From a phage: DNA of 56,145 bases. Position numbers and translations under genes: made by a program. Each line of letters starts with the position of its first letter. Positions within the stretch are counted from its first letter, which is position 1. The notes below the pieces were generated by a model that searched no databases, was not told the origin of the DNA, and was given only the letters and a program-made list of their open reading frames with translations. The DNA is taken from the sequence record PZ386950.1; one strand, given 5' to 3'. Shown piece by piece: positions 11,531-35,236 of the stretch.

Positions 11531-11619
11531 AGATACAGTTAATACAGAACGTGTACTAACTGTACATGGTTTTACATAGGTTTCATGATTTTGAGTTGCA
11601 GCTAATACTGAATCTGTAT

Positions 11620-11760
11620 TAGTAGATCATAGATTCATAGATCGCGTCATGTTTATTTTTGACCAACCCATCTCTATCTTATTCTTTTTATTATCTTTTT
11701 ATAGAAAACATAGAAAACATAGATAAATAGAAGAGTAGTATAAGTAGTAAAAGTTGCTGC
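11620..11760. repeat. AT-rich element copy A (about 90 percent identical to 50985-51125)
   Basis: cgtcatgtttatttttgaccaacccatctctatcttattctttttattatctttttatagaaaacatagaaaacatagata matches second copy nearly base for base. Confidence 0.8.
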
Positions 11761-11816
11761 AAGTAGGAGAGGTTTAAAAGGTATAGAGAGTCGCATACTT
11801 CCCATGAATCTATACG

Positions 11817-11856
11817 TAAAATAATTCTTGACGAATTACACCGACACAACTACTCT
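11817..11856 (+). promoter_or_regulatory. sigma70-type promoter with UP element (copy 5, plus strand)
   Basis: AAAATAATTCTTGACGAATTACA plus 17 bp and TACTCT. Confidence 0.55.
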
Positions 11857-11886
11857 GTGGTTAAGAAAACAAGAAGGGTTGAATGT

Positions 11887-12255
11887 ATGGATCCGAACAT
11901 CAGAGTTGCCACAGACGAATTCATTCGTCGCGCCTGTAAAATTCATGGTGATCGTTACGACTACTCATTCAGCATTGTTGAAGATAGTTCCAGCACAGTG
12001 GTTATTATTGACCGTGAAACTAATACAGTGTTTTTCCAGGTTGTCGCTGAACATCTGGACGGTGTTGAACCAGTAACGACTGCTGTTGAACCGGTAACGA
12101 CTGCTGTTGAACCGGTAACGACTGTTGTTGAACCGGTCAAGAATCTTTCTGAGACATTCGGTAACGTTGCAAACAGCGTGTATCACCAGTGCAATTATTC
12201 ATCTGAAATGTTAGAATTTAGTCATGTTGAAACAATACGAGGACAGTCCCCGTGA
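11887..12255 (+). CDS. hypothetical protein with VEPVTTA tandem repeats
   Basis: track ORF starts at GTG inside the promoter -10; trimmed to in-frame ATG 11887 with RBS AAGAAGGG. Confidence 0.55.
   Translation: MDPNIRVATDEFIRRACKIHGDRYDYSFSIVEDSSSTVVIIDRETNTVFFQVVAEHLDGVEPVTTAVEPVTTAVEPVTTVVEPVKNLSETFGNVANSVYHQCNYSSEMLEFSHVETIRGQSP
12064..12137 (+). repeat. 21-bp coding tandem repeat (about 3.5 copies)
   Basis: gttgaaccRgtaacgactgct repeated, encoding VEPVTTA. Confidence 0.85.
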
Positions 12256-12662
12256 TAAATGTAAAAGTCAGCAAAACAGACCCCGGTTTACGAATGGTAT
12301 TCGGCTGGGGAACGATTTGTAAGAAAAGAAATTCTGAAAACGGTTTGTTAGAGGAGTACATCGACACTGACAACGAAATATTTCCCGAAGATGTTGTTCT
12401 AAAAGCATGGTTGGAATTCATGTCTGGCGACCAGCGTATTATGGACAATATGCACAATGAACAACCTGTAGGGAAAGTTGTGTTTGCGTTCCCGATGACT
12501 GAAGACATTGCGGAAAGTTTTGGGCTGGTTGATAAACTGGATCAGACAGGCATCATTGTTGGTACGTTGATAACTGATGACGAAGTTTTGAAAAAGTTTC
12601 AGACTGGTGAATATACGGGCTACAGCATCGGTGGTTCAGCTTATTATAAGGATGTGGAATAA
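12252..12662 (+). CDS. putative prohead protease (S78/U35-like catalytic region)
   Basis: MHNEQPVGKV and TGEYTGYSIGG resemble His and Ser motifs of HK97-type prohead proteases as I recall them; position before scaffold and capsid. Confidence 0.45.
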   Translation: MINVKVSKTDPGLRMVFGWGTICKKRNSENGLLEEYIDTDNEIFPEDVVLKAWLEFMSGDQRIMDNMHNEQPVGKVVFAFPMTEDIAESFGLVDKLDQTGIIVGTLITDDEVLKKFQTGEYTGYSIGGSAYYKDVE

Positions 12663-13921
12663 TGCGTACAGATGGTACTAATCATTTACGTCGCGCTAAA
12701 TCGATGAAGATCGGTTTTCTGTCCGGCGTGACAAAACCTGCTCACGAGGGAGCAAATGCTCTTGTTCTTAAATCACATTCAGAACCGCCTGCCGTTGCTC
12801 TTTTAAAGTCAACATTCAGTGCAGCACTGGCTGAAAAAGAACTTGAACAGAAAGTTCGCGATTTCCTCTCTAATTCGTGGATGTTGAACGATGCGCTTTA
12901 TGAAGCAGCAGAGGATATTGCAAAAGATGATTCTGTTACCGATAAACAAGCAGCATTGCGTGACGCGGTAAATGAATATATTATAACGTTGCAACAGGCC
13001 GCTGGTATTTCGATGAATAAAGCGAAAGGTGGTAAAACTGAAGACGGTGAAGTTTTCCCGGCATCTGATTATGCATATGTACCAGATCCAGAAAAACCTT
13101 CAACCTGGAAACTTCGTTTAACAGCTACCCCTGGCGGTGAACCTGATGCGCGTATTGTAGGCGCTGCACTTGCTGCATTAGGTCCGGGTTATCGCGGTAA
13201 CAAAGTTGAAATCCCTGAAGCCGATTTAGCAGGTGTGAAAAACAAAGTCCGATCCGCGTGGAAAAAATTACACCCGGACCAGGAAGTACCTCAAGTTTTA
13301 AAAACGGCAGAGGAAATCGAAATGTCCGAACTGGAAAAATACAAAGCCCTGGCTGAGATGAACGACGTCCATAAGGCGTATCATAATTCTCTGCCTGAAT
13401 CTGATCAGGAAGCATTCCGTAAAATGGATGTGACTGCTCGCGATGCCCTCGTGACGATGGCTAAACAGGCTGATGAATCGTTTACCACGATTGCGGGTCA
13501 GGTTGTTCAGAAATCTGTAGCTGGTCCGATGTATGACGTTCTGAAATCTCAGGACGAACAACTTCGCAAAGCACAGACTGAAGCGGCACTGGCGAAAGCT
13601 AAAGAAACCGTGAACACTGATTTCGCACATATTCCGGGTGAAATGGTACAGAAAACCCAGATGGTCATGACTCTTGAGCGTTTACCGGAAGCGGATCGTA
13701 ACTTCCTGGTTGAAAAGCTCAAACAGGCCGACGAACTCTGGAAAGCACGTAAAGAGCCAGCCGCGCCGAACGGCAGTGGTAAAGGTTCCAGTGCACTGGA
13801 AGACATGATCAACGAATGGCTGAAAGCAAATCCGGGTAAAACACGCACCCAGGCTATGCAGGCCATTTCTGCAACTAAAAAAGGTCAGGAAGCAATCGAA
13901 GCGATGCGAGGTGACGAATAA
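12662..13921 (+). CDS. scaffolding-like protein
   Basis: 419-aa acidic, helix-rich protein between protease-like and capsid genes. Confidence 0.55.
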   Translation: MRTDGTNHLRRAKSMKIGFLSGVTKPAHEGANALVLKSHSEPPAVALLKSTFSAALAEKELEQKVRDFLSNSWMLNDALYEAAEDIAKDDSVTDKQAALRDAVNEYIITLQQAAGISMNKAKGGKTEDGEVFPASDYAYVPDPEKPSTWKLRLTATPGGEPDARIVGAALAALGPGYRGNKVEIPEADLAGVKNKVRSAWKKLHPDQEVPQVLKTAEEIEMSELEKYKALAEMNDVHKAYHNSLPESDQEAFRKMDVTARDALVTMAKQADESFTTIAGQVVQKSVAGPMYDVLKSQDEQLRKAQTEAALAKAKETVNTDFAHIPGEMVQKTQMVMTLERLPEADRNFLVEKLKQADELWKARKEPAAPNGSGKGSSALEDMINEWLKANPGKTRTQAMQAISATKKGQEAIEAMRGDE

Positions 13922-20278: not shown

Positions 20279-23194
20279 ATGGCACAATATCCTATTGATA
20301 TTAAGATTGACACCGGTTCGGCTGACCGCAATCTTAATAACCTTAACAGTCAGTTAGATCAGACTGAAAAATCAACCATAGCTGCTGCACAGGCTGCTAA
20401 TCAGTTATCTGAGGCTGAACAGCAGGTTGCAAAAGCAGCACAGCAACTGGCACAGCAACAAGCTAATCAGGCTGCGCGTACTATAGCAACTGCTCGCGCT
20501 ACTCGTGAAGCGGCAACAGCACAACTACAGCTTGAAAAATCACTTTCTGCATCTACTGACAACTTTCATGTTATTGCACGTTTACAGGCGCAAGTTAAAC
20601 AAGCTACTGAAGCTGAAACAAAAGCTACAGAACAATTAAAAAACAGTCTTAAACAACTTGTACCTGAACAGAAAAAAGTCATAGAAAATACTAAGCAGGT
20701 AGAAACCAGCACTAACAAAACAACAGGCGCTCTTGAAACACTTGTCACTGGTGCAAAAGCGTTTGTCGGTTTACAGATTGCAGGATCGCTTTACGACTGG
20801 GGTAAAGCCTTTGTAGATACTGCAACGAAAGTCGAACTGCTACAAAGTCGTATCAATCTGTACACATCAACGTCTGTCGAATCACAACAGATATTTGCGC
20901 AATTAGTACAACAAGCTAACCGTGCTGGTACAGATATTGACGCTGTGGCAAACAGTTTTCAGCGTTTTGCCGCTGCTGGTAAAGATGCCGGGATTAGTAA
21001 TCAGGTTATTTTACAGTTTACCGACAACCTGCAAAAAATGGCCCGTGTATCTGGTGCATCCAGTGCTGAAGCATCTGCGGCTATTTATCAATTATCACAG
21101 GCATTTGCATCTGGTCGTTTGCAGGGTGATGAATTCCGATCTGTGTCAGAACAGTTACCAACTGTTCTTCAGGTGCTGGCTAAACAGATGGGTGTCACCA
21201 CGGGGGAACTTAAACATTTAGGTTCTGATGGTGAAATTACCCGTGATAAACTGTTGTTGTTAAACAACGCGACTGATGAAATCAGCGCACAGTTCGATAA
21301 ACTTCCTCGTTCTGTAGATCAGTCTGCCACTGCGTTACGTAACAACCTGTCTGTGGCTATTGCTGAACTCGATCAGCAGATTGGCGCATCTAAATTCCTG
21401 GCTAAATTCCTGGACCTGTTAGCAGGTGGTGTATCGGGTACAACAGAGTTAATAAAAGCCGCTGCAGGTGCTGACAAACTGGCACAAGCCACTAACAATC
21501 TGAACAGTGTTACCGCAAAACGTGAAGCCAATCTGAAAGAAATTGCAGATCTGGAAGCACAAATTCAGCGTGGGTATACAACACAGTCAATTGGTGGGTA
21601 TACAAAATTTGTTGGTGACACCAGTGCTGCACAGAAGAAATTAAACGAACTTAAAAAACTTGATGTTCAGTTAACAAAACAACAAGCAGAAGCACAACGA
21701 GGGGTTGTTCAGGCTACTCCGTTGGGTAAGGGTGTTGCTGAAAATCTTGCAAATCAGGCAAGCACTTTACAGGCGAGTATTACGGCTGCTCAGGCTGCCG
21801 GACGTCCTGATGCCGAATCTGCAAAACAGATTAAAAATCTGAAAGAACAGATCACCTATACCCAGGCGCTTGCTGACGGTAACTATGAACTGGCAGCAAG
21901 TCAGAAACTGGGTAATAAAGCAACGAAGGAACAGATTGCAGACTACGCCGCGTTGTTGAAACAACAGGCAGAATATAAAGAAAATCAAAAGAACCAGAAG
22001 AAATCAGCCAGTGCTGAAGCATCTGCTGCTAAACGTGCACAGAAAGAACTGGAACGTAATCAGGCTGCTAACCAGAAATACCTGAAAACGCTTCAGGATA
22101 AAATCAATGCTGGTAATTATGATGTTCAGTTAGCACGCGAACAGGTTCAGATTGCTTTAACACAGGGGTCGTCTGTTGAACAACTTACAGCAACGTATCA
22201 GAAAGAATATCAGGTACGTCAACAGTTAACGCTGGCATCACAACAGGCAGAAGCACAATCACGACTGAATAAAGACGCGACTGATGCTGAACGTGCCGCT
22301 GTTGATGCACATGTGGCTGCATTGCAACGACAACAGCAGATAGCACAGTTAAGCGCAGATGTAAAACAAGTTGACATTGATGTGAAAGCACAGTTGAACC
22401 CGTATCAATCACAAATTGATCAGGTTAATCAACAGGAAGCAACACGTCTTAGTATTATTCAAACTGCCCGTGAACAAGATTTAATCAACGAGCAACAATA
22501 CCAGGATATGAAAACGCAGATTCAACAGGCTGGGGAACAAGCCCGTACGAATCTTGCAAACGCTAACTACAGCTTGTTGCTACAATCCAGTGCTGATTTT
22601 TTGGGTCAAATGGCTGCTGGTCTGGCACAATCTAAAGGTGAGCAATCAAACGCGTATAAAGCGATGTTTGCACTGTCTAAAGCCTTTAGTATCGCACAGG
22701 CAAGCATTAACCTGTGGACAGCAGTTAGCCAGGCTATGGCGTTGCCGTTCCCGGCGAATATTCCGTTCATTGCACAGGCTTTGTCATATGGAACAAGCGT
22801 GTTAGGTAATATTCAGTCTGTGGCTGCAACAGGTTTTGCAACGGGTGGTTATGTTAAAGGTCCGGGTACAGGTCAGAGTGACAGTATAAACGCACGTTTG
22901 AGTAATGGTGAGTTTGTCAGTACCAAACAGGCTACCAGTCGTTATCGTAGCACTCTGGAAGCAATGAATCGTGGGACATATACCCCCGGATCTGAAGGTG
23001 GTTCATCACCTAATATTCAGGTTCATAACTACGGTGGTGAACGTGTTCAGGTGAAACAAGGATTAACACGGGATGACGTAGTGCTTATCATAGGTGAAGA
23101 ATTCCCACGACAATCAGCGGCACAATGGAATGACCCGTACAGTCAGACAAATAAAGCGTTCAGGTCTAACTATGATGCGAACAGGAAAATATAA
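20279..23194 (+). CDS. tail tape measure protein
   Basis: 971 aa, long Q/A/K-rich coiled-coil N-terminal two thirds, location after chaperone pair. Confidence 0.85.
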   Translation: MAQYPIDIKIDTGSADRNLNNLNSQLDQTEKSTIAAAQAANQLSEAEQQVAKAAQQLAQQQANQAARTIATARATREAATAQLQLEKSLSASTDNFHVIARLQAQVKQATEAETKATEQLKNSLKQLVPEQKKVIENTKQVETSTNKTTGALETLVTGAKAFVGLQIAGSLYDWGKAFVDTATKVELLQSRINLYTSTSVESQQIFAQLVQQANRAGTDIDAVANSFQRFAAAGKDAGISNQVILQFTDNLQKMARVSGASSAEASAAIYQLSQAFASGRLQGDEFRSVSEQLPTVLQVLAKQMGVTTGELKHLGSDGEITRDKLLLLNNATDEISAQFDKLPRSVDQSATALRNNLSVAIAELDQQIGASKFLAKFLDLLAGGVSGTTELIKAAAGADKLAQATNNLNSVTAKREANLKEIADLEAQIQRGYTTQSIGGYTKFVGDTSAAQKKLNELKKLDVQLTKQQAEAQRGVVQATPLGKGVAENLANQASTLQASITAAQAAGRPDAESAKQIKNLKEQITYTQALADGNYELAASQKLGNKATKEQIADYAALLKQQAEYKENQKNQKKSASAEASAAKRAQKELERNQAANQKYLKTLQDKINAGNYDVQLAREQVQIALTQGSSVEQLTATYQKEYQVRQQLTLASQQAEAQSRLNKDATDAERAAVDAHVAALQRQQQIAQLSADVKQVDIDVKAQLNPYQSQIDQVNQQEATRLSIIQTAREQDLINEQQYQDMKTQIQQAGEQARTNLANANYSLLLQSSADFLGQMAAGLAQSKGEQSNAYKAMFALSKAFSIAQASINLWTAVSQAMALPFPANIPFIAQALSYGTSVLGNIQSVAATGFATGGYVKGPGTGQSDSINARLSNGEFVSTKQATSRYRSTLEAMNRGTYTPGSEGGSSPNIQVHNYGGERVQVKQGLTRDDVVLIIGEEFPRQSAAQWNDPYSQTNKAFRSNYDANRKI

Positions 23195-23697
23195 TGAGCA
23201 ATACAGATGATTTACCACGGCTTGAGTACGGCGCGAAAATGGTGTTACCTGAGCGTGATAATTACAGTTATAACCCGCCGTGGGGTGTAACTAAATCTGA
23301 TATTTCCGGGACGCTATCACGGTTAGGTCGTAGCGCCTTTGGTGGTCCTGCTCAGGTATCGTGTACAATTCAGTTATATAGTCCTGCGATGCTTCAGTGG
23401 TGGGACGATTTTTATAATCTGGAAATCGCTGAAGGTAGTAAGCGGTTTGTGATGCAACTGTTTGTGAACGGTTTGATTCAGGAACACGTTGTTCAGATTG
23501 TCAGTAACCCGTCGTCCTCTGTTGTAGGATGGAAAGGATCTGTCGATCTACAGTTGCAAGCTGTTCCTGTAATCGACCGTTGCGCAATGGCATCACGATT
23601 GTTAATCACTAAATGCCAGGGTGATTACGCTGCTTGTTACCTTAAAGAAATTATTGATACTGGCCTACTCTTAAATAACGCGTGGACACCAGAATGA
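23194..23697 (+). CDS. minor/distal tail protein
   Basis: 167-aa ORF immediately after tape measure gene. Confidence 0.55.
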   Translation: MSNTDDLPRLEYGAKMVLPERDNYSYNPPWGVTKSDISGTLSRLGRSAFGGPAQVSCTIQLYSPAMLQWWDDFYNLEIAEGSKRFVMQLFVNGLIQEHVVQIVSNPSSSVVGWKGSVDLQLQAVPVIDRCAMASRLLITKCQGDYAACYLKEIIDTGLLLNNAWTPE

Positions 23698-31328: not shown

Positions 31329-31413
31329 TTCAACAGATGTTAATGACAAGTGGTTAGATATTTATTTCAAATGTGCAACTATTCACAACGCATTAGTAGA
31401 CAGTCTTCAGTAA
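31165..31413 (+). CDS. o-spanin (Rz1-like lipoprotein), overlapping i-spanin in +1 frame
   Basis: MKKLILFFVMSVLLLNISAC lipobox; ORF starts inside the i-spanin gene and extends past its stop. Confidence 0.7.
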   Translation: MKKLILFFVMSVLLLNISACTTNELPKQKAVYQAALVQKCQTENLPRLNGLTGSDSTDVNDKWLDIYFKCATIHNALVDSLQ

Positions 31414-31626
31414 ATCTTCAACCGATACTTCAATCCACGATGCGGGAACCGGATATTCAGTCCGGTACATGAACAAGGATGTTCCTATCAACCCGTGTGG
31501 ATCTGTTTTAATCCCTCGCATGTTCAACAACGGAAAAAACTGTTCGCGTGTTTGTGGCAATCGTGCAAAGCGTCCTGTCGGGCGTTTAGCAGGATCCATA
31601 GGGTTGAATTCAACGATTGTGGACAT
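31393..31626 (-). CDS. hypothetical protein
   Basis: 77-aa ORF at end of minus-strand replication operon. Confidence 0.45.
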   Translation of the reverse strand: MSTIVEFNPMDPAKRPTGRFARLPQTREQFFPLLNMRGIKTDPHGLIGTSLFMYRTEYPVPASWIEVSVEDLLKTVY

Positions 31627-32131
31627 AACAATAACTCCTGTACGCTTGTCGTTTTATTTTCTGATAGTCGGAAACTTTTACAGATCTCGTTTTACATTCA
31701 CCGATATGATGTGGGTCGAAAACAAACATCACCTGTGAACGGTCATTTCCGCCTGCAGGTAACCCGGTGTCAGGATCTACAAACGCTATACGACCTTTAA
31801 ATACCCATAGTTCTGAACAATGTGTCAGTGCTTTATGAAACCAGTCTGCAGACGTCATAGCGTTCACAAGTAATAACGAACCAGTTCCCTGATAAACAGT
31901 GGTTATTATTTTATTAACCCAGGGGGACGGATCGCTGTACGGTGGGTTACACCAGACGAACCCACCACCATTACTTTGAACAATCGAATGCCAGTCTTTA
32001 TTCAGACTATCAGTGATAAACAACGAACATTTAGCGTTAGAACCATCGGTACACACATCAAGAACAAGTGGGAATTCACGAGAAACATTATCAATAAAAT
32101 CCCACGGTGTTTCCCAGTTGTCTTTAGCCAT
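31610..32131 (-). CDS. dam: DNA N6-adenine methyltransferase (phage Dam-like)
   Basis: FVWCNPPY catalytic motif, WETPWDF N-terminus; trimmed to ATG 32131 (MAKDNWETPW). Confidence 0.8.
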   Translation of the reverse strand: MAKDNWETPWDFIDNVSREFPLVLDVCTDGSNAKCSLFITDSLNKDWHSIVQSNGGGFVWCNPPYSDPSPWVNKIITTVYQGTGSLLLVNAMTSADWFHKALTHCSELWVFKGRIAFVDPDTGLPAGGNDRSQVMFVFDPHHIGECKTRSVKVSDYQKIKRQAYRSYCYVHNR

Positions 32132-32477
32132 GTTCCGGTACGCTCTCCACGCTGTAATACACAGGAATACCCAGACGTTCAGCTTCTGCAATTTCCGCAA
32201 TAGTCCCGGACGAACGACGATAATCAGGAAGCACCAGAACAGCGTCACACCGACGCATAACTTCTAATGTGCCTGACAGGTAGTATTCGGGTTGTATATT
32301 GCGTAAACCACCGTCAAAGTCCCACAATTCGGTGTTTTTGTGAGGGATGATCGGGAACCACCCCGGACGTTGTAACGCCAGTCGTTTACCTGCCTGTTCA
32401 GCGCGTGACACGTTACGGGAGGTTTTAAGCGCACAATCAGCACGATAAGGCCCGGCAATGTAACAGAGTTTAATCAT
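32124..32477 (-). CDS. DUF4406-like protein (nucleoside 2-deoxyribosyltransferase-like fold)
   Basis: CYIAGPY...CDAVLVLPDY...GTIAEIAEAERLGIPVYY pattern; trimmed to ATG 32477. Confidence 0.55.
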   Translation of the reverse strand: MIKLCYIAGPYRADCALKTSRNVSRAEQAGKRLALQRPGWFPIIPHKNTELWDFDGGLRNIQPEYYLSGTLEVMRRCDAVLVLPDYRRSSGTIAEIAEAERLGIPVYYSVESVPEHG

Positions 32478-32811
32478 GGTTGTTTTCCTGCATCTGTAAG
32501 AACACAATCATTGCGGCACGGAGTGGGTTAGCGTGAATAACACATGAGTCATCCGCATAAATCATTTCTGTCGCATCACCAGTAATTCCATCAATAGCAG
32601 CATTGTCAGGTAAAGCGATCCATGATGAATCTGTTGAAACAATACTAATTTTATTTTCAATAATAATCGGCATTGCATCGTCTGGTTTATTACAATAATC
32701 GACTACTTGATTCACCAGTTTGAGACGATGTTCATGTGATGGTTCACCGTACAATTTACGACTAACCATTGCGTTGATTGAAATATCACTTAAAACACTG
32801 TAATCAGTCAT
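32470..32811 (-). CDS. hypothetical protein
   Basis: 113-aa ORF. Confidence 0.5.
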   Translation of the reverse strand: MTDYSVLSDISINAMVSRKLYGEPSHEHRLKLVNQVVDYCNKPDDAMPIIIENKISIVSTDSSWIALPDNAAIDGITGDATEMIYADDSCVIHANPLRAAMIVFLQMQENNHD

Positions 32812-33340
32812 GACGATTCATTCCCTCTAACATGTCCCAGATAAGCGCAACACGACGCGGATCCGTGCTGATAGTGTGTAAAGTTTCACATCCGTAATGC
32901 CATCCCCAACGAACGGATAATTCAGACAGCAGATAACCACGGGAATTAGCTAGTTCAGCCAGTTCACCAGGTTTGAACGTCGTTGTATTAGGTTCTGTAA
33001 GAACACGAGTACCACAGATAGCGTCACTGATGCGCCACGGTTTCATCAGGTCATCAACCTTGTACCAGTTACTGATACTGATTTCAGACGTTCCCCAGCG
33101 TGCAGCCAGTTTCAGACGTTCCTGACGGGCCGGGAACATTGGCATCTGTGGTAAACGCAGTTGAATCTGTTCTGCAGGTTCGAACATATCGTCGTCTGTT
33201 AAACGGAATTCACCACGGTCATCAATATAAAAACCACGGGAACGACCGTCGCGGGTGAACCCGTCAACACGGTTATAAATTTTACCGGGAGTAAAGACAC
33301 CAATCGGTGAACCAGCTACGAATTTGTGTGAAGTATGCAT
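32804..33340 (-). CDS. hypothetical protein
   Basis: 178-aa ORF downstream of polymerase gene. Confidence 0.5.
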   Translation of the reverse strand: MHTSHKFVAGSPIGVFTPGKIYNRVDGFTRDGRSRGFYIDDRGEFRLTDDDMFEPAEQIQLRLPQMPMFPARQERLKLAARWGTSEISISNWYKVDDLMKPWRISDAICGTRVLTEPNTTTFKPGELAELANSRGYLLSELSVRWGWHYGCETLHTISTDPRRVALIWDMLEGMNRHD

Positions 33341-33379
33341 TGTTATCGCCTCAATAAGTTTTAAATAATTCTATACGGT

Positions 33380-35236
33380 TTACCGAAGTGGTGCAACGAG
33401 TTTTTCAGCTTCTTTGATGTAAAAATCATAATTGAGTGTTGCCCGGTTAAAACGTTTCATGTCGTTACACTCAGTGGTCAACCAACCTTTACACACTGAC
33501 ATGCGGCGTTCAGGCGCATCAGGGTTCAGTTTCAGTGATTTTGCCAGCGGTGGCATGACTTTTGTTAATGGTGCACCATCTGTGCTGACATAATAACGGG
33601 TAATGTTCTGAACCTGTTTGTCACCCCATAGTAATTTGCTATTACGCGGTACTTTCGTCACCAACATAAAATCGTGAATGTCTTCGTGTGATGTTATAAA
33701 ATCACGAATGTCTTTATTGTGTACCAGTGCTGCTTCAGCCGCTTTTGCAACAACCTGCATACTGTGGTTTTGATGCCAACCCAGATCAACACTGTGGCAA
33801 TAAGCACCTTTACGTTTAACCTTCTTACCACCTTCATAAACAGCGATGTAGTTATTTACATCGCGGATAAACATCACGTCATAAATCGCTTCTTCAAGCT
33901 GGAGTCTGGTTAATTTTTCCCACGCGTGACGAACCTGTTCTACTTGTTCGGTAAACACTCGTGGCACGTAAACCGTAAGACCATCTGTGTTAGCCTGGAT
34001 CATGGACAAACCAGGGATTTTCAGAAGTTCTTCAGCCAACATGCACAAAAGTAACTGTCCATTAATCGTAATAGCCATTGTATAAGCAGGATCGTAGAAC
34101 GGGCTGTATACGTTATTACTGTCGCCATACACACCGTTTAACGCCAGTTTTAACATTGCATTTTCTGGTGTACCTTTCGGGTAACTGGAACGCATGTCAT
34201 AAACATTTTTATAAATGGTGCAAAATTGTTTTCCCAAATGTGCAGGGTAAAGTTCATTACTAATCGCAAGGTTTGGATAAAAACTGGCAACGTCCAGATC
34301 GATGATCACATAATTTTCAGTGGACCTGATAGTTTGAGATTCAATAGACCCGTGGATACCACCCGTACCAAAATCAAACGAGAACCCGTTAATGTCTGCG
34401 CTTAAATCAGTAAACACACCTTTTGTTTCAGTGATGACCTGTTGACGTAACCAGTTAAGAACACGATTAAATTCAGGCTGTTCAAAACGAACATAAGGGA
34501 AAATCACACTGTTCAATGCGATTGATGGTCTGTGCGTCTGCCGTGGTTTTCTGCTACCCGGTTCGAAACATTGAATACCTGATTTTTTAAGTTCCATGAT
34601 GAAATAGTCTTTACCGATTTTCGTGTCGTTATGGTTCATGAAATTACGACCGTATTTAGCAGAAAGTTCACGACGAAAATCGATCAGCTTTTTACTGTGT
34701 TTATAAAACATCAAAGTCGCTTTTAAATCGTGTATCAGATATTGACGAAGCGTATCAATTTGAGAATCGGTTAAATAAGTCCCTGGGGTAAACGGAAGGT
34801 CTTCAATGTTTTCCATTCTCATGTTGAACTCAAGTGTTTTCAGACTTGTTCGTTTTGCCTGGTTGTCGAAATGATGAATTTTATACAAATCAAGTTGGGG
34901 AACTATCCAGTCTTTTTCCCACACCATATGAGCAAAACGATTTTCATCACCAGCGTTAATTATCGAATCACCTTTTTTGTAAATGTCTGCGTTGGTGATA
35001 TACATGATGTTGTTCAAAATAGAATGCTGAACAGGATAGTCGTAACCTAGATTGTTATAACCAACTTCTTCAGCACGATGTTCACGCAAATATTCTGTGA
35101 ACAGGTAAAAAGCCTGACGATCGTCGCGACGATGTGAAATCTCAAAAATATAAGGTGTTTCAGTTAATGCGTGAATAGCACCGAACAGGAAAACATTAGG
35201 ATAATTTTCAATATCGTGAATGTAAGCATCTGACAT
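33380..35236 (-). CDS. family B DNA polymerase (compact, with 3'-5' exonuclease motifs)
   Basis: Exo I HDIEN, Exo II YNNLGYDYP, Exo III YLIHD; polymerase motif A DLDVASFYPN, motif B KLALNGVYG, motif C ANTDG. Confidence 0.75.
   Translation of the reverse strand: MSDAYIHDIENYPNVFLFGAIHALTETPYIFEISHRRDDRQAFYLFTEYLREHRAEEVGYNNLGYDYPVQHSILNNIMYITNADIYKKGDSIINAGDENRFAHMVWEKDWIVPQLDLYKIHHFDNQAKRTSLKTLEFNMRMENIEDLPFTPGTYLTDSQIDTLRQYLIHDLKATLMFYKHSKKLIDFRRELSAKYGRNFMNHNDTKIGKDYFIMELKKSGIQCFEPGSRKPRQTHRPSIALNSVIFPYVRFEQPEFNRVLNWLRQQVITETKGVFTDLSADINGFSFDFGTGGIHGSIESQTIRSTENYVIIDLDVASFYPNLAISNELYPAHLGKQFCTIYKNVYDMRSSYPKGTPENAMLKLALNGVYGDSNNVYSPFYDPAYTMAITINGQLLLCMLAEELLKIPGLSMIQANTDGLTVYVPRVFTEQVEQVRHAWEKLTRLQLEEAIYDVMFIRDVNNYIAVYEGGKKVKRKGAYCHSVDLGWHQNHSMQVVAKAAEAALVHNKDIRDFITSHEDIHDFMLVTKVPRNSKLLWGDKQVQNITRYYVSTDGAPLTKVMPPLAKSLKLNPDAPERRMSVCKGWLTTECNDMKRFNRATLNYDFYIKEAEKLVAPLR

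Follow-up and report, generated by a model that had tools for sequence, protein, structure and literature searches.

The gene pair and its junction

The window analyzed here is the whole of a 56,145-nt stretch of phage DNA (PZ386950.1), and its sequence places it among the Sashavirus/Nonanavirus-like (9NA-like) siphoviruses of Escherichia coli. This report concerns two adjacent minus-strand genes of the window, a phage Dam-family methylase gene (Dam) and a gene of the nucleoside 2'-deoxyribosyltransferase (NDT) superfamily, hereafter the NDT-like gene. A first-pass annotation had described a Dam-like and DUF4406-like pair at 31610-32477, and two open reading frames (ORFs) were indeed found there on the minus strand, as follows.

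32124..32477, minus strand: NDT-superfamily gene (DUF7768/DUF4406), 117 aa, start MIKLCYIAGP, MIKLCYIAGPYR
31610..32131, minus strand: phage Dam-family (PF05869) N6-adenine methyltransferase gene, 173 aa, start MAKDNWETPW
32124..32131, minus strand: 8-nt overlap of the NDT-like gene and Dam, ATGGCTAA, with the Dam start codon embedded in the 3'-terminal codons and stop of the NDT-like gene

The 2-kb region of the locus is 96.8% identical to Escherichia phage PDP46 and 94-97% identical to other E. coli Sashavirus/Nonanavirus-like phages, PJ16, AVIO78A, and KarinMuster (Bas82) among them. The PDP46 and PJ16 records name the two products "DNA N-6-adenine-methyltransferase" and "2'-deoxynucleoside 5'-phosphate N-hydrolase"; therefore, the pair had been observed correctly, yet its annotation is no novelty.

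The two genes had been said to overlap by ATGA. This needs correction, as the overlap is the 8 nt listed above. The NDT-like gene ends in the frame CCG GAA CAT GGC TAA, and Dam starts in the frame ATG GCT AAA. A well-spaced Shine-Dalgarno sequence lies 8 nt 5' of the NDT-like gene. The nearest GGAG 5' of the Dam ATG is 13 nt away (32131-32150, minus strand), so that Dam is without a well-spaced Shine-Dalgarno sequence and its translation is probably coupled to that of the NDT-like gene. Longer ORFs (212 aa and 127 aa) that open with GTG or TTG were rejected as genes, since the ATG starts agree with the PDP46 annotation.

Predicted activities of the two proteins

Against Pfam PF05869, the Dam protein scored 106.8 bits (cut-off, 28.1; E = 1.3e-30) over residues 2-143, and it matched phrog_111 at 3.6e-47. 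The description of this gene as a phage Dam with an NPPY motif is borne out by the score and by the motif, which occupies residues 62-65. Residues W6, T8, P9, D25, N62-P63-P64-Y65, R114, and F117 are invariant in a 26-sequence alignment of the subfamily; all of them are present in Dam, and the protein looks intact. Among the window ORFs of at least 100 aa, the (N/D/S)PP(Y/F) motif occurs only in Dam. The Pfam model leaves out a C-terminal tail of ~30 residues, the last five codons of which are supplied by the neighboring gene. When six near-identical phage records are set aside, the best phage matches to Dam are less than 40% identical. A PDB sequence search with Dam gave no meaningful match.

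Dam resembles the phage enzymes of PF05869/TIGR01712 (T1, HP1, and Stx-phage VT-2) in being small, without a separate target-recognition domain, in carrying an N-terminal WxTP and NPPY, and in being encoded in the accessory or nin-like region of a siphovirus. It differs from the Stx-phage and T1-like enzymes in sequence (~32-33% identity) and lies just under the TIGR01712 cut-off. The Stx/VT-2 and T1 enzymes are characterized GATC methylases, and it is on this family precedent that a GATC specificity of Dam rests. GATC would thus be the likeliest site, though an uncertain one because of the low identity and the TIGR01712 score. The window contains 200 GATC sites, with 212 (base composition) to 244 (Markov) expected; the count is uninformative on Dam specificity except that GATC is not avoided. 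The close relative KarinMuster has been reported to be markedly sensitive to the tested restriction systems, as expected with a narrow, single-site protective methylase.

Several side observations concern motifs and short words elsewhere in the window. A 167-aa ORF of the structural region (23194-23697, plus strand) contains an NPPW tetrapeptide, probably by chance. Over the whole window, CTAG is scarce (12 observed; 54 expected by Markov, 212 by composition), GGCC is low (49 observed; 75 and 127 expected, respectively), and AGCT is low as well (104 observed; 171 and 212 expected). CCGG is in excess, at 217 observed and 151 (Markov) or 127 (composition) expected.

The NDT-like protein matched DUF7768 (PF24963; 37.0 bits, threshold 26), DUF4406 (PF14359; 30.3 bits, threshold 22), and phrog_355 (4.8e-26). 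Its match to Nuc_deoxyrib_tr (PF05014) was sub-threshold, at 17.4 vs 28.8 bits. The AlphaFold monomer model was confident (pLDDT 95.7, pTM 0.89), and the modelled structure matches the flavodoxin-like NDT fold. The DUF4406-like identity and the NDT-fold resemblance claimed for this gene therefore held up. A profile search of 1.84 billion representatives returned 15,977 cluster representatives at E ≤ 0.001, so that the DUF7768/DUF4406 family, when grouped at 50% identity, comprises ~16,000 clusters.

Across 42 homologues (down to 40% identity), Y6, G9, N22, A26, P45, H46, C77, S89, G91, E95, A99, and P105 are invariant, and R12, T70, E72, R76, and D78 are near-invariant (D78 in at least 90%). 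Y6, D78, and E95 are predicted to form the Tyr/Asp/Glu catalytic triad, which in the NDT superfamily consists of a Tyr on strand 1, an Asp or Asn, and a nucleophilic Glu (PMC12884076), the equivalence of D78 to the triad Asp/Asn being one of sequence position only. The spacing of S89-x-G91-x3-E95 is identical to that of Ser87, Gly89, and Glu93 in rat DNPH1, in which Ser87 and the Gly89 backbone hold the 5'-phosphate and Glu93 holds the sugar (PMC3834327). In a PDB sequence search, the NDT-like protein gave a weak match to the CMP N-glycosidase 4jen only, with E95 aligned to the corresponding Glu and Y6 to a Phe. A Tyr at this Phe position reportedly accompanies 2'-deoxy substrates, as is said to have emerged from the 2013 MilB work of Sikowitz and colleagues. 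Biochemical work on DmtZ, an NDT-like enzyme of phages, has established both dAMP N-hydrolase and deoxyribose-5-phosphate transferase activity, with Tyr6/Asn77/Glu103 as the catalytic triad (PMC12884076). Because of the NDT-fold model, the conserved Y6/D78/E95, and the DNPH1-type phosphate motif, the NDT-like protein is predicted to be a 2'-deoxynucleoside 5'-monophosphate (dNMP) N-glycosidase or a phosphodeoxyribosyltransferase, acting via a covalent Glu95 intermediate.

Known enzymes resemble the NDT-like protein in part. It shares with DNPH1/Rcl the putative 5'-phosphate pocket, with a Ser six and a Gly four residues before the catalytic Glu (S89, G91, and E95 here). The differences from DNPH1/Rcl are a sequence identity of ~17%, a length of 117 aa vs ~160, the sub-threshold PF05014 score, and the additional invariant residues N22, P45-H46, and R76-C77-D78 of the window family. 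Furthermore, DNPH1 is a homodimer whose active site is completed by the second subunit, whereas the window protein, modelled as a monomer, is without the longer C-terminal segment of DNPH1. Nucleoside 2'-deoxyribosyltransferases such as that of L. leichmannii (1f8x) have an Asp six residues before the Glu, which binds the 5'-OH; the NDT-like protein has an invariant Ser at this position, as in 5'-phosphate-binding hydrolases. PA1492 (PDB 1t1j; DUF1937), a structural-genomics protein, is 16% identical to the NDT-like protein and has no assigned function either.

DmtZ of the Z-genome phages (NAR 2026, PMC12884076), likened here via its published description, shares phage origin, membership of the NDT superfamily, and a Tyr/Asn(Asp)/Glu triad with the window protein, and its gene lies beside nucleotide hydrolases (PMC12884076). 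It differs in acting in the PurZ0/DutZ pathway. Of the 98 features of the PDP46 record (56.5 kb), the 80 that lie in the first 50 kb include none annotated as purZ-like. A tblastn search with the NDT-like protein found no phage of Gordonia, the host genus of phage Ghobes. The PDP46 record (L100) also carries, at 11537-12783, a dUTPase gene and a gene labelled 'nucleotide modification associated domain 1', both of which probably have counterparts in the window.

Operon context and the methylase slot of 9NA-like phages

The pair lies among the following minus-strand features.

31393..31626, minus strand: 77-aa ORF (phrog_25980), conserved, last gene of the operon
31610..31626, minus strand: 17 nt shared by the Dam 3' end and the 77-aa ORF 5' end, which form the right edge of the methylase cassette
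32470..32811, minus strand: NinX/DUF2591-like gene directly upstream of the NDT-like gene (Pfam and PHROG matches)
32804..35236, minus strand: 178-aa hypothetical protein (phrog_19205) and DNA polymerase, upstream in the same operon

In the 9NA-like phages, the position after the NDT-like gene behaves as a slot for exchangeable methylase genes. The order of NDT-like gene, methylase, small ORF, and facing lysis cassette is constant in 9NA, Sasha, Kpn BU9, Proteus phage Isfahan, and several IMG/VR and Logan contigs. The occupants of the slot belong either to PF05869 (160-173 aa, or 244-246 aa where fused to the small ORF) or to PF01555 (265, 393, 399, 443, 483, and 517 aa). Despite these methylase swaps, the NDT-like gene is 89-97% identical among the 9NA/Sasha-like relatives; it is 60% identical in Proteus phage Isfahan, the carrier of the 399-aa methylase. 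The swapping of PF05869 and PF01555 enzymes beside a stable NDT-like gene argues against a base-specific partnership.

The exchange was seen on comparison of the window (31610-32131) with 9NA (L002), Sasha (L003), BU9 (L007), and three further loci (L011, L013, and L015), and the edges of the exchanged segment were read from DNA alignments. On the left, homology is lost in the final five codons of the NDT-like gene, where a conserved CATGG holds the methylase ATG, so that the 8-nt overlap is also the left edge of the exchangeable cassette. On the right, homology to 9NA, Sasha, and BU9, the three relatives aligned there, returns at the ATG of the 77-aa ORF. The 3' codons and stop of the methylase are accordingly read from the stretch of the 77-aa gene and encode VHNR in the window, 9NA, and Sasha, and INR with the same stop in BU9. 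Thus, the slot exchanges exact methylase ORFs, and both flanking genes and both overlapping junctions are retained. An arms race with restriction systems would produce an outcome of this kind, and the exchange does not require any preference of the NDT-like enzyme for a particular methylase.

The methylase and the small ORF overlap by 17 nt in the window, 9NA, Sasha, and BU9, and by 13-29 nt in Isfahan and two other loci (L091 and L095). A single in-frame ORF unites Dam with the 77-aa homologue in two relatives that are more distant: P0123 (L019 4344-5084, 246 aa) and P0125 (244 aa). The C-terminal part of the fusion is 41-49% identical to the 77-aa protein of the window, and the internal Met is kept; only one frame change, immediately 5' of the internal ATG, separates the fused state from the split one. 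This is the only fusion seen, and none joining a methylase to the NDT-like protein turned up in the family representatives scanned (see below). The 77-aa protein was modelled with confidence (pLDDT 91.4) as a compact small alpha/beta fold. Structure searches with this model gave no PDB match and, in BFVD, only its own orthologue; the protein is thus an orphan fold, and it is confined to the 9NA-like phages.

These features raise the question of whether the partner of the methylase is the 77-aa protein, as an accessory or regulatory subunit of any methylase in the slot, with the NDT-like gene a mere neighbor. The in-frame fusion, the overlap kept across relatives, and the confident, compact fold speak for such a role. 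The same small protein, however, follows methylases of two unrelated families, which is hard to square with a specific protein-protein partnership; it shows no detectable DNA-binding or other known fold, it is limited to 9NA-like phages, and the fusion could be incidental because the two states differ by a single frame change. We consider this partnership unlikely, although it is compatible with the account favored below, and the two likelihoods are not mutually exclusive.

With regard to the operon, the NinX-like gene overlaps the NDT-like gene likewise, by 8 nt (ATGATTAA), and the 77-aa ORF is preceded at 8 nt by a well-spaced Shine-Dalgarno sequence (AGGAG). In a simple consensus scan, the minus strand gave no promoter or terminator match from the end of the polymerase gene as far as the 77-aa ORF. 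Co-transcription of the two genes near the distal end of an early/replication operon is the best explanation. The first-pass annotation had placed the pair at the end of the replication operon; the distal position stands, but Dam is not the last gene. The conserved 77-aa ORF lies 3' of Dam, which is therefore second-to-last. The 3' ends of the 77-aa ORF (minus strand) and of an o-spanin ORF (plus strand) converge with a 21-nt overlap at 31393-31413. The o-spanin belongs to the plus-strand lysis cassette, and the same convergent arrangement is annotated in phage Sasha.

Methylase neighbors of DUF7768 genes and the relation of the two enzymes

In the account that we favor, the pair probably consists of two accessory enzymes that act independently and are co-transcribed and translationally coupled in a 9NA-like phage. 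The PF05869 enzyme would be an orphan N6-adenine methyltransferase that modifies the phage's own DNA and so protects it from a particular restriction specificity, and its gene would sit in the slot where methylase genes swap as exact ORF cassettes. The DUF7768 enzyme would most likely cut the N-glycosidic bond of a dNMP through a covalent Glu95 intermediate, and it may also pass deoxyribose 5-phosphate to another base. With either activity, the dNMP pool would be edited during infection. What the analysis shows is the identity of the genes, the fold, the conserved residues, the operon layout, and the cassette exchange; the substrates of the enzymes, the GATC specificity, the translational coupling, and the independence of the two activities are what we infer. 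Nucleotide enzymes recur beside DUF7768 genes elsewhere, namely dNMP kinase, dATP/dGTP pyrophosphohydrolases, MazG-like proteins, and Metallophos phosphoesterases (the last in 3 of 21 genome loci), and they were counted in favor of a role in the dNMP pool. Examples of DUF7768 beside nucleotide enzymes are L098 (2715-4763) and L099 (3001-3645), and one neighborhood contains a tandem second DUF7768 copy together with a dATP/dGTP pyrophosphohydrolase.

A number of observations weigh against this account. Dam scored 91.0 bits against NCBIfam TIGR01712 (phage_N6A_met), below the equivalog cut-off of 97.05; it is therefore a divergent member to which function is not automatically transferable, and its identity to the Dam enzymes of Stx phages and T1-like phages (Drexlerviridae) is only the ~32-33% given above. 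The literature searched yielded no functional study of DUF4406, DUF7768, DUF1937, or PA1492. The Dam ATG has its nearest GGAG at 13 nt and no well-spaced Shine-Dalgarno sequence. Throughout the 9NA-like group, a DNA methylase of one family or another invariably comes straight after the NDT-like gene. Lastly, methylases are over-represented at this position among diverse viruses. In 77 IMG/VR loci, dereplicated to 37 clusters at 70% identity of the NDT-like protein, the first downstream (+1) gene was a DNA methylase in 6 of 36 clusters. For comparison, of 150 other ORFs picked at random within 4 kb, each 100 aa or longer, at least 3 were methylases, a lower bound, as only the 25 commonest Pfam families were listed. 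The excess of downstream methylases over this background gave p ~0.002 by Fisher's test for all 36 genes and 0.0006 for the 28 genes of at least 100 aa.

The neighbors in this census were the nearest same-strand ORFs, taken from our own crude ORF calling and a Pfam scan, and the lineages are not phylogenetically independent. By Pfam family, the six +1 methylases were N6_N4 (three), C5, Dam, and MT-A70 (one each). The five that were located, the MT-A70 locus not among them, overlap the NDT-like gene by 4-26 nt. Upstream neighbors were methylases in 0 of 32 (p = 0.026, downstream vs upstream). When 21 further clusters from genomes of bacteria and archaea were taken as a replication set, one had a +1 methylase, which is not significant alone. 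When the sets were combined (7/57 lineages), p was ~0.005 against 3/150 and would be 0.049 if the background were truly 6/150. Hence ~88% of the lineages are without methylase adjacency. Most DUF7768 genes have no adjoining methylase, and nucleotide hydrolases and kinases are just as frequent neighbors. The same Dam subfamily is also found without a DUF7768 gene. Chi-like phages carry both a Dam-like and an NDT-like gene, with ~4.5 to 5 kb between them; there, a PAPS-reductase-like gene and not a methylase precedes the NDT-like gene (L005, Chivirus KFS-SE1, 1566-2923). We read the association of NDT-like genes with methylases as real but loose. It fits two accessory functions that share the distal end of early operons and is weaker than would be expected of an obligate two-enzyme system.

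As a separate observation, the PHROG of the PAPS-reductase-like gene (phrog_33262) has a C-terminal region that matches the window Dam, which suggests that some members may be reductase-Dam fusions.

The first-pass annotation had proposed that the pairing links DNA methylation with nucleotide processing, a link that the present data suggest weakly. In a true functional coupling, the NDT-like enzyme would serve the methylase, either by destroying methylated dNMPs (N6-methyl-dAMP and 5-methyl-dCMP) from degraded methylated DNA, which would prevent their salvage into new phage DNA, or by removing a methylation by-product such as S-adenosylhomocysteine (SAH). The census gives this idea some footing, with methylases of four unrelated Pfam families in the +1 slot and none upstream. 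So does the slot of the 9NA-like phages, where the adjacency is unchanged through methylase replacement and both overlapping junctions are retained after every swap. In addition, DNPH1 accepts large N6 substituents on adenine and is known as a sanitizer of a modified dNMP. The replication set and the ~88% of lineages without adjacency point the other way, as do the distance between the two genes in Chi-like phages and the active-site residues of the NDT-like protein, which are invariant regardless of the base type modified by the neighboring methylase. Of the top 150 representatives of the ~16,000-cluster family, the ten longest were scanned with Pfam and showed neither a methylase nor any other second known domain, and thus no NDT-methylase fusion was seen there. 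The SAH version has the further difficulty that E. coli already possesses an SAH nucleosidase. Overall, we regard functional coupling as improbable.

That DUF7768 enzymes in general are phage nucleotide-pool sanitizers of methylated dNMPs (N6-methyl-dAMP and 5-methyl-dCMP) seems to us highly improbable. If it were true, methylated bases would be kept out of new phage DNA, methyl-dependent restriction would be avoided, and both the recurrence of the family upstream of four methylase families and the junction kept through the 9NA-like swaps would be explained.

The two genes could also form an anti-defense pair, in which the methylase serves to escape restriction and the NDT-like protein acts against second-line effectors of NDT or TIR fold, or against nucleotide signals. 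Retron Ec86 (Eco1), which is activated by phage Dcm and kills via a dimeric NDT-like effector (bioRxiv 10.1101/2023.08.16.553469), gives a precedent, and both genes lie in the accessory, fast-swapping end of the operon. The likeness to Ec86 consists of an NDT-like domain whose biology is tied to phage DNA methylases; the retron protein differs in that it is an effector of host defense, has an additional lobe, and is bound to msDNA and reverse transcriptase. Similarity in sequence between it and the NDT-like protein was not detected, and the connection is thematic only. Moreover, the full catalytic set (Y6, D78, S89, G91, and E95) is strictly conserved, which points to a small-nucleotide enzyme and not a decoy. 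The family is very large, and some of the contigs that carry it are assigned to various bacteria and to one archaeon, with a phage integrase beside it in at least some of these. The related phage KarinMuster is not unusually robust to the tested defenses, and on phage NDT-like anti-defense proteins the literature searched yielded nothing for the DUF7768/DUF4406 family. An anti-defense pair is accordingly very far from likely, and independent accessory enzymes remain the account that we favor.

In its present state, the pair is a routine phage accessory module that is already annotated in public records. It nevertheless offers a precise substrate prediction for DUF7768/DUF4406, a very large family without a characterized member in the literature searched, and a clean natural case of ORF-exact methylase cassette exchange that keeps translational coupling on both sides. 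It also draws attention to a 77-aa protein of orphan fold, which some relatives encode as a fusion with the methylase. If the NDT-like enzyme were tied to methylation, it would add a new layer to the way in which phages handle epigenetic marks during infection.

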